Source of the DNA: a virus
Lineage: Duplodnaviria; Heunggongvirae; Uroviricota; Caudoviricetes
DNA length: 11,327 bases
IMG/VR virus record: IMGVR_UViG_2778261591_000005
Location: 1 to 11,327 of that record
Strand: one strand, 5' to 3'
The notes under the pieces were generated by a model. It made no database searches. It saw only the letters and a list, made by a program, of their open reading frames with translations, and was not told the DNA's origin. Position numbers and translations under genes: made by a program. Shown here piece after piece: positions 647 through 6,402 of this stretch. Numbering within the stretch: position 1 is the first letter of the stretch; the number at the start of each line of letters is the position of its first letter.

Positions 647-1474
647 TTATTTAATCTGGATAAATGGTGTATTGGCACCGCTGGTCATGTATTGCGGCAG
701 AGTACCGTTCCACTTGTTGATGGCTTCCAGCTCCATGACGCCAGGGTTCTGGCGCAGAGCTTCACCGCGTAAACGAATAGCATCGGCCTCGGCCTGGGCT
801 TTTGTGCGAATCGCATCTGCCTGTCCGGCAGCTTCCGCGCGCAACATGTTAGCTTCCGCTTCGCGCTGTTTTACTTCCTGTTCGCGTTGCAGGGTTTTCT
901 GGTTCGCCGTGACTTTGGCATTAATGCTGTCGATAACGGTTGGCGGGTACTCCGGCTTACCCACATATGAGAGACTCATTACCTGAATACCGATGGGCGT
1001 CATTTCTGCCTGAATGTCTTTAAGAGCTGCATCCAGTAGTTCAGACTTCCCGCCGTCGATAAATTTGTCAGTGGTCATTTTGCTGGCCAGTCGATTGAGT
1101 GCGTCGGCGATCTTCTGGCGCAGGTCAGTATCGGTAATGTCATCCACGCCTTTGCGGTAGGTCTGAAACACCGTGGTAACTTTGGATGGATCAACTTTGT
1201 AGGCAACACCGATGTGATAGCCAATGGTTGTGCCGTCACTCATCTGGAAGCTGAACGGCTCATCGTAGGTCTTCATTTGTTTGAAGGTTGGGAAGATGTA
1301 AACTTCAGTGTTCCATCCCGTCCAGTAGCGCCCAACACCGACCACTTCACCGACGCCTTTATCGTCGCCAAGTTTGTTTACTTTGATGCCCACATTACCA
1401 GGCTCAACGCGATCGCAACCGACAAGGCCAATGGTCGGCAGAACAAGGGCTAAAGCAAAAAGTAATTTTTTCAT
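647..1474 (-). CDS. SPFH/band-7 (stomatin/prohibitin/HflKC-like) domain lipoprotein
   Basis: 275 aa. N-terminal signal peptide with lipobox (MKKLLFALALVLPTIGLVGC, Cys20). C-terminal Ala/Glu/Arg-rich helical segment typical of SPFH proteins (QREAEANMLRAEAAGQADAIRTKAQAEADAIRLRGEALRQNP). SD AAGGA 4 nt before ATG. Confidence 0.85.
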   Translation of the reverse strand: MKKLLFALALVLPTIGLVGCDRVEPGNVGIKVNKLGDDKGVGEVVGVGRYWTGWNTEVYIFPTFKQMKTYDEPFSFQMSDGTTIGYHIGVAYKVDPSKVTTVFQTYRKGVDDITDTDLRQKIADALNRLASKMTTDKFIDGGKSELLDAALKDIQAEMTPIGIQVMSLSYVGKPEYPPTVIDSINAKVTANQKTLQREQEVKQREAEANMLRAEAAGQADAIRTKAQAEADAIRLRGEALRQNPGVMELEAINKWNGTLPQYMTSGANTPFIQIK

Positions 1475-1659
1475 CTTTTATCCTTAGAAAAAGAAAGACC
1501 CTTATAAATGGCATAAATGCAGGGCGGGGTCAGACACGCCAGAGCAAAGCCAGAAATCACTGCTACCGTATCCTTCATTGATATGAGGGCCGGAACGATT
1601 AATCCGTAAATACATGTGATAATTGCCAGTGATATAACTATTCTGAAATAAATGTTCAT
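1471..1659 (-). CDS. small membrane protein (62 aa, two predicted TM helices), translationally coupled to the SPFH gene
   Basis: Hydrophobic sequence MNIYFRIVISLAIITCIYGLIVPALISM…VAVISGFALACLTPPCIYAIY. CAGGAGG just upstream of ATG at 1659. Its stop overlaps the SPFH start in an ATGA arrangement (1471..1474). Confidence 0.6.
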   Translation of the reverse strand: MNIYFRIVISLAIITCIYGLIVPALISMKDTVAVISGFALACLTPPCIYAIYKGLSFSKDKR

Positions 1660-1719: not shown

Positions 1720-2112
1720 TCAGAATGGTTTTGTTGCCATCAGTTCGTAATATCCGGCGCTCCATGTGTCATATTTTCTGAACCATTTTTCTGTATACTG
1801 TTTCCTGGCGATGAGTCTGCGCAGTCGTCTGATTGTTCGCTGGTGTGCGCGGGTATACTCTGTGGTTGATTCTCCACGTTTCCATATCTCATTCCCGTTG
1901 AAGATAAAACGCTTGTCAGGATAGCGTTGCCGGAATCCTGAACGTTCAAAAGCGCGGGTGGTCATAAAGAATGCCAGGTAACGAATTGCCGTTTTTCGGG
2001 TGAGGCATTTTTTTGTTCTTCCGTGGCGTGTTACAAAAAATAACGGGCCGACGGGTGTATCATGTTTCTGTAATGCCTGGTCAATGGCGCTGGCGGTGCG
2101 GTTGTCGATCAT
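1720..2112 (-). CDS. hypothetical basic protein (130 aa, Arg/Lys-rich; possibly nucleic-acid binding)
   Basis: GGGAGA SD about 9 nt before ATG at 2112. ATGA overlap with the stop of the upstream ORF 2109..2327. Basic composition (…RRLRRLIARKQYTEKWFRKY…). No family confidently recognised. Confidence 0.6.
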   Translation of the reverse strand: MIDNRTASAIDQALQKHDTPVGPLFFVTRHGRTKKCLTRKTAIRYLAFFMTTRAFERSGFRQRYPDKRFIFNGNEIWKRGESTTEYTRAHQRTIRRLRRLIARKQYTEKWFRKYDTWSAGYYELMATKPF

Positions 2113-2327
2113 TTCTTTATTTCTCCCGAATAACGTTCATGACTCATTACTTCCCAGTTCCGGCCGTCGCCTTTCGATAACAGCCGCCAGCAACGGTTAA
2201 CCTTCAGACTGAGATATCCGGTGCGCTGTATCCGATGCGGAAATATCCGTCGGCATCGGTACAACAACAGGACCTGCAATGCCTGCCGGTGGATCCGCTC
2301 AGGAATGCGTGTTGCTGTTAATGCCAC
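2109..2327 (-). CDS. small Arg-rich hypothetical protein (72 aa, GTG start)
   Basis: Strong SD (tCAGGAGGaaaccgGTG) and ATGA coupling to the downstream 130-aa gene. Composition is unusual (R/W/C-rich), so coding status is uncertain. Confidence 0.4.
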   Translation of the reverse strand: MALTATRIPERIHRQALQVLLLYRCRRIFPHRIQRTGYLSLKVNRCWRLLSKGDGRNWEVMSHERYSGEIKK

Positions 2328-2514
2328 CGGTTTCCTCCTGAGCAGGTGCTGTTATCTGATACCCCGCTCTTTCTGCCAGCCGTATGAATGTATCCATGCT
2401 GGCAATCAGCTCGCCATCGCGGACTTTGCAGACACCTGTGACTTGGCCATTTTCAATTGTCATAACGATCTGCACTTTTTCGCGCACAACAGATACAGGG
2501 GATAAATTAGCCAT
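2299..2514 (-). CDS. hypothetical protein (71 aa)
   Basis: GGAGG SD about 9 nt before ATG at 2514. Start overlaps the stop of the upstream gene by 8 nt (coupled). Confidence 0.55.
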   Translation of the reverse strand: MANLSPVSVVREKVQIVMTIENGQVTGVCKVRDGELIASMDTFIRLAERAGYQITAPAQEETGGINSNTHS

Positions 2515-3277: not shown

Positions 3278-3970
3278 CTACTCCTTTGCTTCTGATTTTC
3301 CCGTTAACAACCACATCAGGTCACAATTAAGCGCACTGGCCAGTGGTACTATCTGATCAGCAGGAACTTCACAGGTGCCGCATTCCCAGTCGTTTATGGG
3401 GTCGCTGTAGGTGTGAATCATGCGTGCCAGGTCTGCTTCTGTTAAGCCCAGTTTTTTACGGGCGCTTTTGATGCGCGCACCAATATTTTCCACATGGACT
3501 TCAGGCGCATTTACGCGAATAACTGACTCGCTGTTTTTTTCACTCAGCAGAGAAAGCGGATCGCATCCCAGGACGTTTGCCAGGGGGGTAAGCATGCTGA
3601 TGGTTGGCTCGTACTCTCCACTCTCCCATTGCAGAATAATTTCTTCATCAAGATCGAGTAGTCTGGCAAGTTCGGTGGTCGTTAAGCCGCAGGCTTCGCG
3701 TTGAGTGCGAAGGTTAACCAGCCAGCTTTCAGGGAAGGATTGTTTTTGTTGTGCAGGAGAAGCCGCAGATAGAGCATATTCATGGATAAATTCCATTACC
3801 TCAATGCCCAGTTCCTTTGAGCGAGCACAATCCAGAAGATGGAATGTGCGTACAGCACTTAGCAAATTTGCAATATTTAATGCAAAGGAATCAAGTTCTA
3901 AGCCCTTAAGCGAAACACAGCCGCAGTTGATAAGATTAGTTGTTTCTGGAGTTGCGTTTAGTGTCTTCAT
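3278..3970 (-). CDS. transcriptional regulator with N-terminal domain of unknown function plus two tandem XRE-family HTH domains
   Basis: 230 aa. HTH1: LRTQREACGLTTTELARLLDLDEEIILQWESGEYEPTISMLTPLANVLGCDPLSLL. HTH2: IGARIKSARKKLGLTEADLARMIHTYSDPINDWECGTCEVPADQIVPLASALNCDLMWLLTG. Own promoter upstream and terminator-insulated from the cI-like gene. Confidence 0.8.
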   Translation of the reverse strand: MKTLNATPETTNLINCGCVSLKGLELDSFALNIANLLSAVRTFHLLDCARSKELGIEVMEFIHEYALSAASPAQQKQSFPESWLVNLRTQREACGLTTTELARLLDLDEEIILQWESGEYEPTISMLTPLANVLGCDPLSLLSEKNSESVIRVNAPEVHVENIGARIKSARKKLGLTEADLARMIHTYSDPINDWECGTCEVPADQIVPLASALNCDLMWLLTGKSEAKE

Positions 3971-4023
3971 ATATCCACCAACAATTTTAAATTGAATAAA
4001 ATCAAGTTATAATTGATGGTGCG

Positions 4024-4052
4024 ATATTATGCTTTGAAAAACAGGCTGTCAA
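4024..4052 (-). promoter_or_regulatory. sigma70-type promoter for the tandem-HTH gene
   Basis: Minus strand TTGACA (4052..4047), 17-nt spacer, TAATAT (4029..4024). Predicted start near 4017, giving a leader of about 47 nt to ATG at 3970. Confidence 0.5.
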
Positions 4053-4082
4053 GAAAAAATTGATATCGTATATTTTAGGCAG

Positions 4083-4115: not shown

Positions 4116-4805
4116 CTAACCAAATCTGTTTATATTGAATGGTACTGATGAGATCACTTTAGACTGGATATAAAGCAGAGCTAACCCCTCTTTTTCGATG
4201 CTCCATGGTTGATAATTAGGGTTATCAGATAACACCATGATTTTACTTCCAATTTTTTGAAGTCTTTTCACGTAGCATTCTCCATCAAAACAAAATGCAT
4301 AAATGCCATCGCCATCAAAATAAGTTACTGTCTTATCGAGAAAAAGAAGGTCGCCAGGTGAGATTGTGGGAGCCATACTGTCTCCTCTGGCGTTACCTAT
4401 TTCTATATTTTTGAATGCCCGATTTCCAACAAGACGTCGGGCATATTCAGGATCAAGTTCTATTGAGCGCACTACATCTATCAAGTCACCACGGACATGA
4501 GTTCCATCACCGCAACTAAACTCAACATCAAGGACATTAAACACGACGCTATCTGTTCTTGTCTGGAGTTTCTCTTGCGAGGAAAAGGTTGGTGAGGAGT
4601 CTTCGCCTAAGAACCAAGATTGTGGATAACCGCTAATCTCTGATAAATGCGCGAGCTTATCACTTCGTGGAAATGTTTTTCCTGTTGTCCAGTACTGCAC
4701 TGATTGCGCACTCACACCTAACTTGCGGGCCAGTTGAGCCTGAGTCCATCCTTTTGCTTTCAGCATCGCGGCTATTCGATTTTCCGTGTTTTTGACGTTC
4801 TTCAT
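4116..4805 (-). CDS. cI-like prophage repressor (N-terminal HTH, C-terminal S24/LexA-type autopeptidase domain)
   Basis: HTH: GWTQAQLARKLGVSAQSVQYW. S24 catalytic motifs: GDSMAPTISPGDLLFLDK (Ser) and YVKRL (Lys) about 36 aa later. Possible Cys-Gly cleavage site in FSCGDG. ATG at 4805 preferred over the TTG at 4811 used by the track. Confidence 0.9.
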   Translation of the reverse strand: MKNVKNTENRIAAMLKAKGWTQAQLARKLGVSAQSVQYWTTGKTFPRSDKLAHLSEISGYPQSWFLGEDSSPTFSSQEKLQTRTDSVVFNVLDVEFSCGDGTHVRGDLIDVVRSIELDPEYARRLVGNRAFKNIEIGNARGDSMAPTISPGDLLFLDKTVTYFDGDGIYAFCFDGECYVKRLQKIGSKIMVLSDNPNYQPWSIEKEGLALLYIQSKVISSVPFNINRFG

Positions 4806-4938
4806 GACCAAATCCTGTGGGTTTCTTTACAAGGATAAATCTTTACTTGATTTTAGTGTATTCGATCCTTTTGCAACTTGCATGTTAATTTAAACTTGAT
4901 GTATTCTTGATTTATAAAGTTAATATTGGTGATTTGTT
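4806..4938. promoter_or_regulatory. divergent promoter/operator region of the cI-like/Cro-like switch
   Basis: 133-bp AT-rich spacer between divergent genes. Three copies of an 11-bp motif: ACTTGATTTTA (4845..4855), ACTTGATGTAT (4894..4904), TCTTGATTTAT (4905..4915), the last two in tandem. Palindromic TGCAA-c-TTGCA at 4871..4881. Candidate rightward promoter TTAAAC-N17-TATAAA (4890..4918). Confidence 0.5.
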
Positions 4939-5211: not shown

Positions 5212-5281
5212 TGGTGGTGATATGAGCGAAAAAATAACTATTAAATACGATGGGACAACCATTTCGATTGCCCCGATCACA

Positions 5282-5575
5282 TTAGCGTTCGCTGAGAAGT
5301 TGTTGGTAAGCCTTAAAGGATGCGAACTGCATTCTACCTTCGGCATTGATTCCAATGCCTTCGCTTGTACACCAAGCGATGAACTCGGCTGTATCCGCTT
5401 CAACTTTAATAACTCGTTGCCCGCCTCTTTCGACACGCTTAATCAATTTTTCAGCGTCGTGTTTCCACTCGGTGTAACTGTCGGAGAGCACATCAGCATC
5501 AGTAAAAATATTTTTGAGCTCATGATACTGAATCGCATCGCGAAACCAGAATAAACCAACGGCCTGAACTTTCAT
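5282..5575 (-). CDS. hypothetical protein (97 aa), orphan gene convergent with the Cro-like gene
   Basis: Strong SD (AAGGAGGttcgacATG). Protein-like composition (MKVQAVGLFWFRDAIQYHELKNIFTDADVLSDSYTEWKHDAEKLIKRVERGG…). Opposite orientation to the flanking rightward operon. Confidence 0.65.
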   Translation of the reverse strand: MKVQAVGLFWFRDAIQYHELKNIFTDADVLSDSYTEWKHDAEKLIKRVERGGQRVIKVEADTAEFIAWCTSEGIGINAEGRMQFASFKAYQQLLSER

Positions 5576-5688
5576 GTCGAACCTCCTTTGGTTCTTTTGT
5601 TTATAGGGATCAAAAGGATAACTGAAGGAAGGTTCGGCACCAATAAGTACGAATGTGCGGAATCTTAAAAGAATTTATCCGTAAGGAG

Positions 5689-6402
5689 ATGGCAGTGAAC
5701 ACCGCAATTTTTAACGGCAAAGCATCCATGACCAGCCTTGAAATCGCAGAGCTGGTGGGTAGTCAGCACTCAGATGTTAAACGTAGTATCGAACGCCTGG
5801 TTGCTAAAAACATCATCCGGAAACCGCCAATGGCTGTTTCCGAGAAAATCAATAACTTAGGTTTTAAAGTTCAATATGAGCATTACCTGTTTGAAGGAGA
5901 ACAAGGTAAACGCGACAGCATCATTGTCGTCGCTCAGCTCTGCCCTGAATTCACTGCTCGCCTGGTAGATCGCTGGCGCGAACTGGAAGAACAGATCCGT
6001 AAGCCAATGAGCGAAATCGAAATGGTTGCCGCGATGGCTCTTGAAGCTGTTCGTCAGCAGAAACGGATCACTCAGGTGGAAGAAAAAGTCAGCCACGTTG
6101 CCGAAACAGTTGAGCAAATCAAAAAGGGCACCATTCGTGAGGGCTATGCCGGATATCGCCAACTGAAAGCGAAAACCGGTTTGTCAGATGATAAATGCCG
6201 CAATCTGGTGAACGCTTATCAAATTCCTACAGACACCCATGAGTTCATGACGCCGGACGGATTGTTGTCACGTCGCGCAATTGTTGCCGTGGAACCTTTT
6301 ATGGCTGCTTTTTATCGGGTTATGGAGGAAGCAGAACCGCGAGGGACTCGCTGGTATCACCCGAAAATGGGGTTATTTCAGGTTATTGGTTGGCAGCGGT
6401 GA
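5689..6402 (+). CDS. Rha-family phage regulatory protein (paralog 1)
   Basis: N-terminal motif TSLEIAELVGSQHSDVKRSIERL matches the Rha-type signature. Start ambiguous: ATG 5653, ATG 5689 (AAGGAG directly abutting) or GTG 5695 (6-nt spacing). Confidence 0.7.
   Translation: MAVNTAIFNGKASMTSLEIAELVGSQHSDVKRSIERLVAKNIIRKPPMAVSEKINNLGFKVQYEHYLFEGEQGKRDSIIVVAQLCPEFTARLVDRWRELEEQIRKPMSEIEMVAAMALEAVRQQKRITQVEEKVSHVAETVEQIKKGTIREGYAGYRQLKAKTGLSDDKCRNLVNAYQIPTDTHEFMTPDGLLSRRAIVAVEPFMAAFYRVMEEAEPRGTRWYHPKMGLFQVIGWQR

Follow-up and report, generated by a model that had tools for sequence, protein, structure and literature searches.

The window analysed here, an 11,327-nucleotide stretch of a Caudoviricetes virus (IMG/VR record IMGVR_UViG_2778261591_000005), represents the left arm of a lambdoid prophage of the phiP27 type and carries on its minus strand two overlapping genes. 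One encodes a 275-residue predicted lipoprotein with an SPFH (Band-7) domain (647-1474), and the other, directly upstream, encodes a 62-residue predicted two-helix inner-membrane protein (1471-1659). We find that this adjacent, usually overlapping pair recurs across very distant phages far beyond what chance would give, and that it is a widespread phage module which is not restricted to lambdoid phages. We consider the chances evenly balanced that the two genes form one conserved envelope module, the N4 gp19/gp20 family, which would make a periplasm-facing cage on the inner membrane early in lytic growth, with a host protein as its client.

The evidence that carries the first part of this reading is the conservation of the pair as a unit. 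A hidden Markov model (HMM) of the small partner was built from the 26-sequence alignment described below, which included N4 gp19, PVP-SE1 gp115, P88 gp11 and the corresponding proteins of a Kluyvera phage-plasmid contig, Lelliottia, Chimaeribacter, phi644-2 and cr126_1. Of the 25 lineages examined, 20 have a match to this model immediately before their SPFH gene. Lineages with the pair include the virulent phage N4, rV5-like, jumbo, crAss-like, Burkholderia, P2-like and P1-like phages and the pMT1-type phage-plasmids of Yersinia pestis. The model also matched in lineages outside the set used to build it, namely Pantoea, Symbiopectobacterium, the jumbo phages fENko-Kae01 and SonariX, the Pseudomonas phage Hali, the Rhizobium phage IC12 and the N4-like Stenotrophomonas phage Pokken, where the partner is an unannotated open reading frame (ORF). 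In most of these lineages the stop codon of the partner overlaps the SPFH start codon as it does in the window, and the same 4-nt overlap was found at the phiP27, P88, Salmonella, Pantoea, Lelliottia, Chimaeribacter, phi644-2 and Hali loci. In the window the overlap is an ATGA at 1471-1474 (tcat on the plus strand). The small gene has a Shine-Dalgarno sequence, AGGAGG, 3 nt before its ATG (1663-1668), and that of the SPFH gene, AAGGA, lies 6 nt before its ATG and within the 3' end of the small gene (1481-1485). The composition is that of the N4 gp19/gp20-type module, a hairpin gene of PHROG 1130 ('membrane protein', E 1.5e-23) upstream of and overlapping an SPFH gene of PHROG 200 ('lipoprotein', E 4.6e-114).

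In some relatives the two proteins are encoded as one. The two-helix module is fused to the N-terminus of the SPFH protein in 17 of the 150 listed family representatives, the set on which our counts of lipoboxes and fusions rest, and also in P0003, from P1-like Escherichia coli phage-plasmids. The fused forms run in the order two-helix hairpin, basic linker, signal-peptide-like helix, lipobox cysteine and SPFH domain. Fusion into a single ORF in relatives is a classical sign that two proteins work together. Furthermore, because the lipobox is kept in the fused forms, signal peptidase II would be expected to cut them into equimolar halves, which would match the translational coupling of the split form. 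The initial annotation had described the ORF pair, its coupling by an ATGA overlap and a tight link between the SPFH gene and a two-helix membrane protein; the first two we confirm in every detail, and the third is strengthened by the conservation across lineages and by the natural fusions.

A few loci depart from the regular arrangement. At two Shigella flexneri and E. coli loci (L004 and L005, about 5212-5991) the SPFH gene seems to lack a partner because an insertion sequence (IS) splits the pair: an IS1-like insertion of about 780 bp lies precisely where the hairpin gene meets the SPFH gene, with a 9-bp target duplication of window positions 1475-1483. A second element at these loci, of the IS3 family, disrupts the homologue of orf130. 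In rV5-like phages, as seen in PVP-SE1 (L100, 2145-2496), an extra 54-residue soluble ORF, gp116, lies between the gp115 hairpin and the gp117 SPFH genes, so that the pair does not overlap directly. In Candidatus Symbiopectobacterium (L013, 6001-6828) the SPFH gene has a stop after codon 50 while the upstream hairpin gene is intact, which is consistent with gene decay in a symbiont.

The larger protein has a true SPFH fold, as had been proposed. Residues 22-208 (851-1411) matched the Pfam family Band_7 (PF01145) with a score of 107.8 bits (E 8.2e-31), where the gathering threshold is 23.6, and the match spans positions 2-176 of a profile 176 positions long. An AlphaFold2 monomer model, built on 27 sequences, has a core with a predicted local distance difference test score (pLDDT) of 85-94 and is confident from about residue 65 to 245. 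It consists of an alpha/beta domain, beta strands and then helices, followed by one helix from residue 178 to 242. This continuous helix of about 65 residues (749-943), assigned by DSSP at a pLDDT of 85-89, corresponds in alignments to the coiled coil of HflK and of prohibitin; in SPFH cages the long helix is the coiled-coil segment that forms the wall. A Foldseek search of the PDB returned only SPFH assemblies at probability 1.0, with HflK/C the best (1.7e-9) and prohibitin 1 and 2 (PHB1/2), erlin 1 and 2, stomatin, flotillin and the major vault protein as the others.

Within the superfamily the protein stands apart. Domain searches did not place it in the HflK/C, QmcA, YqiK or flotillin clades, which the initial annotation had named for comparison, and we reject orthology to each of these since all the NCBIfam equivalog scores fall far under their cut-offs: 24.6 bits against 134.4 for HflC (TIGR01932), 22.7 against 159.4 for HflK (TIGR01933) and 16 against 700 for FloT. 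A phmmer comparison with HflK/C gave an E-value of 1e-3. Much stronger relationships emerged when a family profile of 69 members at 33-61% identity was run against PDB sequences. The best match was PHB1 (E 4.6e-10), aligned almost end to end, followed by PHB2 (E 4.5e-8), HflK/HflC (E about 6e-7) and QmcA (E 6e-6), while flotillin was missing from these profile matches and was found by fold only. Judged by these profiles, the family is a distinct clade nearest the prohibitin/HflKC side of the superfamily. Proteins on that side face the periplasm or the intermembrane space and associate with FtsH-type proteases.

The alignment of the 69 sequences also revealed a conserved C-terminal tail, I-N-K-W-N-G-x-L-P ... 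P-F (650-721), in which W255 never varies across the family while conservation of G257 and P260 is 90% or higher. This motif is compatible with an oligomer cap, without proving one, and the low confidence of the tail in the monomer model would fit a segment that folds only within the oligomer. The family is large, with 223 clusters at 50% identity (E <=1e-30) among 1.84 billion representatives, and over the years its members have received changing and in part mistaken labels ('serine protease', 'transposase', 'lipoprotein'). The first of these, found on many homologues, goes back to phiP27 L05 and is unsupported. In Burkholderia phage phi644-2 the SPFH protein gp36 (L103, 2501-3700) runs on into an rve/IS integrase fragment, and this is why relatives are labelled as transposase fusions. 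Both the 'serine protease' and the 'transposase' labels are wrong for these genes.

On which side of which membrane the protein lies is suggested by its N-terminus and by its partner. The protein begins with MKKLLFALALVLPTIGLVGC followed by DRV. In this signal peptide (1415-1474) a basic n-region leads into a hydrophobic core, the lipobox L-V-G-C ends in Cys20, and the codon at +2 is that of Asp. In agreement with the initial annotation, which had pointed out the signal peptide and Cys20, the sequence MKK-LLFALALVLPTIG-LVGC20 fits the lipoprotein pattern [LVI][ASTVI][GAS]C with a basic n-region and an h-region, and lipidation is predicted. About 100 of 120 close homologues have CDRV or CDNV at this position, most keeping C-D-R-V, and most of the 150 listed representatives, the distant ones included, have a lipoprotein-type signal ending in Cys. 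A sub-clade from E. coli and Enterobacteriaceae contigs and phage-plasmids of about 110 kb (P0107-P0120) carries Tyr where the lipobox Cys would stand (GIIGYDRV); its members cannot be lipoproteins, the lipid anchor having probably been swapped for an uncleaved inner-membrane signal anchor. In E. coli, Asp at +2 is the signal for retention in the inner membrane during Lol sorting, and the window protein has it (C20-D21). Because the partner is an inner-membrane hairpin, and because of the order of parts in the fused forms, which appears consistent only with a periplasmic SPFH domain at the inner membrane, we infer that the SPFH protein is lipidated on Cys20 and held in the inner membrane, facing the periplasm.

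The partner has hydrophobic stretches at about residues 3-29 and 32-51, one Arg near its N-terminus and a basic, net positive C-terminus (KGLSFSKDKR), a charge distribution that fits an N-in/C-in hairpin with a predicted periplasmic turn P23-x-L-I-S27-x-K-D-T. An alignment of 26 free-standing partners together with the N-terminal extensions of fused members is near gapless and comprises helix 1, the turn P-x-(L/M)-(I/V)-S-x-x-(D/S)-(T/S), helix 2 and a basic tail, with Pro23 and Ser27 at least 90% conserved among the 26; the window protein aligns gap-free to N4 gp19, PVP-SE1 gp115, P88 gp11 and the fused extensions. No Pfam family matched the partner or its 26 homologues at E up to 1. The likeness to SPFH/NfeD-type pairs noted earlier does not extend to membership: the partner is not NfeD, as it has no Pfam match and its 62 residues leave no space for an oligonucleotide/oligosaccharide-binding (OB) fold.

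In outline the partner resembles a class II holin, with about 60-70 residues, two helices, an N-in/C-in topology and a charged C-terminus, and the pair might then serve to stabilise the membrane or time lysis, the cage reinforcing the inner membrane or restraining a holin-like partner so as to delay lysis or counter depolarising abortive-infection effectors. In general, SPFH proteins have ties to the integrity of membranes and, in the case of stomatin, to the regulation of channels, and large phages, of which there are many among the carriers, as a class tend towards long latent periods. In the crAss-like cr126_1 the pair lies just upstream of genes for a membrane protein and a peptidoglycan hydrolase, the sole such setting noted. 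Elsewhere, no lysis genes were found near the pair in the window, phiP27, P88, N4 or PVP-SE1; in N4 the lysis cassette gp60-63 is far from gp19/gp20 (PMC12642591). The partner gave one weak holin match (E 0.038, in 1 of 26 members), which is not significant, and with no lysis-cassette setting we reject the class II holin assignment. More than 60 rapid-lysis mutants of N4 mapped to gp61, gp63, gp50 and the terminal repeat and not to gp19/gp20, in a screen that was not saturating (PMC12642591); no gp19/gp20 lesion was tied to the phenotype, and an H110R change was common to wild-type and r stocks. We thus regard a role in lysis timing as decidedly unlikely.

The distribution of the SPFH gene bears on what the module could be doing. 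By tblastn a relative was found in 413 of 50,697 phage records (about 0.8%). Identity to the window protein is 97-98% in Shiga toxin 2 (Stx2) phages and phiP27, 93% in the P2-like P88, 91% in P1-like phages, 80-84% in phage-plasmids of about 106-109 kb, 61% in N4, 46-49% in rV5/PVP-SE1-like phages (48% in PVP-SE1), 37-45% in Pseudomonas, Stenotrophomonas, Alcaligenes, Burkholderia, Erwinia, Rhizobium and Desulfovibrio phages, 29-32% in crAss-like phages and Lak megaphages, and 25-28% in phiCbK-like phages. Among bacterial genomes the gene is present in 535 of 5,426 complete E. coli genomes (about 10%) and is common in prophages of Shiga toxin-producing E. coli (STEC) and in Stx phages; a separate genome scan reached Enterobacterales only, plus one relative at 29% identity. 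It is also carried by 612 PLSDB plasmids, 593 of them non-mobilizable and 63 from Yersinia including Y. pestis, and the carriers are mostly about 94-112 kb among the matches listed. An IMG/VR scan gave 80 loci among the matches listed, all 97-100% identical, and added no diversity. The setting varies between phages, the pair lying just downstream of the RNAP1/RNAP2 genes in N4 and between cox and a replication gene in P88. The record of the Klebsiella jumbo phage fENko-Kae01 states that its SPFH homologue, ENKO_388 (L105, 1498-2337), was detected by liquid chromatography-tandem mass spectrometry, which may reflect either virion association or membrane carry-over.

In the window the pair belongs to a leftward operon. 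Reading leftward, the order is a repressor gene (4116-4811), a terminator-like hairpin (4104-4088), a PL-like promoter (4052-4024), a gene for a protein with two helix-turn-helix (HTH) domains, small genes that include a ParE-like ORF, orf130, the hairpin gene, the SPFH gene, DUF5406, DUF4222, xis and int. The promoter, found by a promoter scan, is a TTGACA-17-TAATAT on the minus strand and is flanked by operator-like ATCAA-N7-TTGAT sequences, the whole spanning 4001-4064. Five of these occur in the window against 0.67 expected; those at 4001-4017 and 4048-4064 bracket the promoter, and another (4835-4851) lies between the repressor and cro-like genes. The scan called no promoter-like site between the PL-like promoter and the module, and the PL-like promoter is likely the start of the operon that holds it. 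A GC-rich hairpin directly 3' of the SPFH stop (GCCCGGC-AAACC-GCCGGGU, 621-639 on the minus strand, RNA fold -14.1 kcal/mol) has no U tract and was not called by the terminator scan. With no upstream promoter-like site, no U tract in the downstream hairpin and no anomaly in GC content, we reject an independent moron with its own promoter and terminator. The early-left placement proposed in the initial annotation therefore stands as regards a leftward operon after a PL-like promoter with cI/cro-type operators, but the pair adjoins xis/int like the lambda ea region and not the cIII-kil-gam region. An identical pair is present beside yecE-yecN in E. coli AUSMDU00002545, annotated as 'SPFH domain-containing protein' and 'hypothetical protein'.

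From this setting came the suggestion that the SPFH protein acts as a modulator of FtsH in the host, by which a regulator of the CII/CIII kind would be stabilised and the lysis-lysogeny decision tuned. The proposal draws on the position in the leftward early operon, on the periplasm-facing topology shared with HflK/C and on membership of the prohibitin/HflKC branch. HflK touches the periplasmic domain of FtsH through its own periplasmic SPFH part (PMC12048511), and the link from HflKC through FtsH to CII has already been proposed for SPFH genes of other phages (PMC8540360, PMC10269572). However, the module is 48-61% identical in the obligately lytic phages N4 and PVP-SE1 and more distantly related in phiCbK, crAss-like and jumbo phages; that lytic phages also carry the gene was remarked in PMC8540360. 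The window has a single SPFH gene and not a K/C pair, and both the HflK and HflC equivalog models scored far under cut-off. None of the window ORFs tested matched the Pfam families of lambda CII or CIII, and we reject a lambda-type CII/CIII circuit. Because lytic carriers make no lysis-lysogeny decision and because neither regulator family was found in these ORFs, a primary role in that decision is very unlikely. The first gene after the PL-like promoter (3278-3970, minus strand) encodes a 230-residue protein with two HTH_3-type domains that falls in PHROG 4836, 'CII-like regulator'; by Pfam it has no relation to lambda CII or N.

The carriage of the pair by lytic and temperate phages and by phage-plasmids would suit early superinfection exclusion, with the pair blocking the entry of a secondary genome at the inner membrane, as T4 Imm and Sp do. 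The pair would be located in the envelope and made early, and PHROG assigns the partner to the category 'moron, auxiliary metabolic gene and host takeover'. In N4, superinfection appears to drive lysis inhibition, and its authors describe the exclusion system of this phage as still unidentified (PMC12642591). Nevertheless, the parallel with T4 is one of analogy, and the N4 rapid-lysis mutants described above, from a screen that was not saturating, lie outside gp19/gp20. A search of PADLOC-DB 2.0 gave no match for either protein at E <=0.01 and none for their neighbours, and we reject a known defence system. Exclusion proteins are usually phage-specific and fast-evolving, whereas the SPFH protein remains 40-60% identical between phages whose injection machineries are unrelated. 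Such conservation would favour a conserved host target, or constraints of self-assembly, over a phage-specific exclusion target, and we consider exclusion an unlikely primary role.

Our literature search found no more than speculation about the family in genome papers. N4 gp20 is labelled a 'predicted protease modulator' (PMC12642591), and a 2026 paper states that the reason for the gene in a phage genome 'remains unclear' (PMC13239085). Experimental data on a prophage SPFH protein turned up in the search for a single case, the HflK/C-like PM0222 (25-35 kDa) of a Pasteurella multocida prophage. The lysogen is reported to produce this protein, which occurs in vesicles and activates Toll-like receptors 1/2 (TLR1/2), and its deletion attenuates virulence (PMC9872710). 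By analogy, the window protein could be a lysogenic-conversion lipoprotein, expressed from the prophage and exported with outer-membrane vesicles to act upon the animal host, and the abundance of the gene in STEC prophages and Stx phages would suit such a role. Yet the likeness of PM0222 to the window protein is one of description. Furthermore, there is no promoter-like site upstream of the pair and the operon appears to be repressor-controlled, Asp at +2 and the inner-membrane partner speak against outer-membrane sorting, and lysogenic conversion cannot account for the presence of the module in virulent phages. We therefore rate this explanation as highly improbable.

We return to the reading that we prefer, in which the pair would probably assemble, over the outer face of the inner membrane of the host, a cage like those of prohibitin and HflKC. 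The SPFH lipoprotein would be anchored by the lipid on Cys20, on the same side as HflK/C and, topologically, as the mitochondrial prohibitins. Every solved SPFH protein assembles in a ring or dome fashion, and the window protein would do so through its long helix and C-terminal W-x-G-x-x-P tail, covering a patch of membrane. The two-helix partner, present 1:1, would provide the transmembrane part, or fence, that a lipid-anchored SPFH protein lacks. In the prophage the module would be transcribed from the repressor-controlled leftward promoter, and for that reason would be made early after induction or infection. The cage would then corral a conserved inner-membrane client of the host during lytic growth; that obligately lytic phages carry the same module argues that its primary job is there, rather than in the choice between lysis and lysogeny. 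The leading candidate for the client is FtsH, in view of the prohibitin/HflKC branch, the shared topology and the contact of HflK with the FtsH periplasmic domain. Such a contact is sterically possible, and we put FtsH forward tentatively, at rather less than an even chance.

Several observations weigh against the cage model or parts of it. In phiCbK and the Ochrobactrum phage OC a different membrane protein is encoded upstream of the SPFH gene, in DL54 the partner is two genes away, and in the 344-residue P0160 the two-helix module is C-terminal to the SPFH domain, a topology misfit unless the ORF is a read-through artefact. The +2 residue is Glu (CE) in rV5-like phages including PVP-SE1 and Tyr (CY) in N4, so the Asp retention rule is not family-wide and the argument for a periplasmic location leans on the partner more than on this residue. 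Residues 14-63 and 249-275 of the AlphaFold2 model have a pLDDT below 50. Identity to HflK/C reaches just 17-19%, and the equivalog scores fall short by over 100 bits, so that the link to FtsH comes from homology at the level of the branch and from topology. Lipidation, localisation and oligomerisation of the SPFH protein are all inferred, and the literature search found no functional study of any family member.

The P0160 junction (…GPWQ-MKKEII…) resembles a separate gene start, and the protein may be a read-through of a downstream partner gene.

We can also imagine, more speculatively, that the pair is a general phage device, a sealed cage on the periplasmic face that captures a conserved host machine (FtsH or a DNA-entry route) or shields the membrane against superinfection and membrane-targeting abortive-infection effectors, and that it is also the missing input for exclusion or lysis inhibition in N4. 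We hold this broad version to be unlikely; if true, it would account for the retention of the module in phages as different as virulent, temperate, jumbo and crAss-like ones, and in phage-plasmids such as Y. pestis pMT1. SPFH cages (HflK/C, prohibitin, stomatin, flotillin and erlin) are now understood structurally. The lipid-anchored SPFH protein with its dedicated partner is a compact two-gene unit that can be tested in N4, in P1 and P2 derivatives and in Stx prophages. Were its client FtsH, phages would have a second route to controlling that protease besides lambda CIII, and a role in exclusion or in protecting the membrane would close a gap that has been pointed out in the biology of N4 (PMC12642591).

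Two neighbouring features are worth recording. In the window, a 72-residue ORF (2109-2327, minus strand) has a Pfam ParE_like toxin domain (60 bits; 'ParE family toxin-like protein' in RefSeq) and may form a toxin-antitoxin pair with the overlapping upstream 71-residue ORF (2299-2514, minus strand; phrog_340). In the Kluyvera phage-plasmid contig (L009, 3363-5705), the RecA-like gene just upstream of the module encodes 780 residues, against 358 in sister contigs, and the extra sequence, which starts with Cys after the P-loop GK, looks like an intein.

Among known systems, the closest is N4 gp19-gp20, which is the same two-gene module: gp20 is the 61% identical homologue noted above, and gp19, which overlaps gp20, lines up with the partner and shares its P-x-(L/M)-(I/V)-S turn. 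The same module is represented by phiP27 L05 with its unannotated upstream ORF, by P88 gp11-gp12 and by PVP-SE1 gp115/gp117. N4 differs in being obligately lytic, in the position of the pair next to the RNA polymerase genes and in its lipobox, LTSC with Tyr at +2. The E. coli HflK/HflC cage around FtsH resembles the SPFH protein in its fold, long helix, C-terminal tail and SPFH domains on the periplasmic side. It is, however, heteromeric, being made of two paralogues that are both anchored by a transmembrane helix at the N-terminus, and the window has no two adjacent paralogous SPFH genes with transmembrane anchors but one SPFH gene, with a lipobox and a 62-residue hairpin protein as its neighbour. 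The mitochondrial PHB1/PHB2 ring, the best match of the family profile through PHB1, faces a compartment topologically equal to the periplasm and associates with an FtsH-type AAA protease. In contrast to the phage pair, it is eukaryotic, heteromeric and transmembrane-anchored and has no small hairpin partner. The SPFH-NfeD pairs (QmcA-YbbJ, YqiJ-YqiK and Pyrococcus PH1510-PH1511) similarly join an SPFH gene to a co-transcribed gene for a small membrane protein. NfeD partners carry a soluble OB-fold domain and their SPFH proteins face the cytoplasm, whereas the window pair has a bare hairpin with no Pfam match and an SPFH protein that would face the periplasm, and QmcA was a weaker profile match than PHB or HflK/C. 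T4 Imm and Sp are made early and act on the envelope of the infected cell, and they offer a functional analogy in combining an early two-helix inner-membrane protein with a periplasmic protein; they have no detectable homology to the pair, the two T4 genes do not overlap each other, and the SPFH fold is absent from both proteins. Pasteurella PM0222, likened here by description, is a prophage SPFH protein of similar size that differs in being reported in outer-membrane vesicles and acting on macrophages (PMC9872710). A lipid-anchored periplasmic SPFH protein with a non-NfeD hairpin partner, often fused to it, thus differs from every characterised SPFH system.

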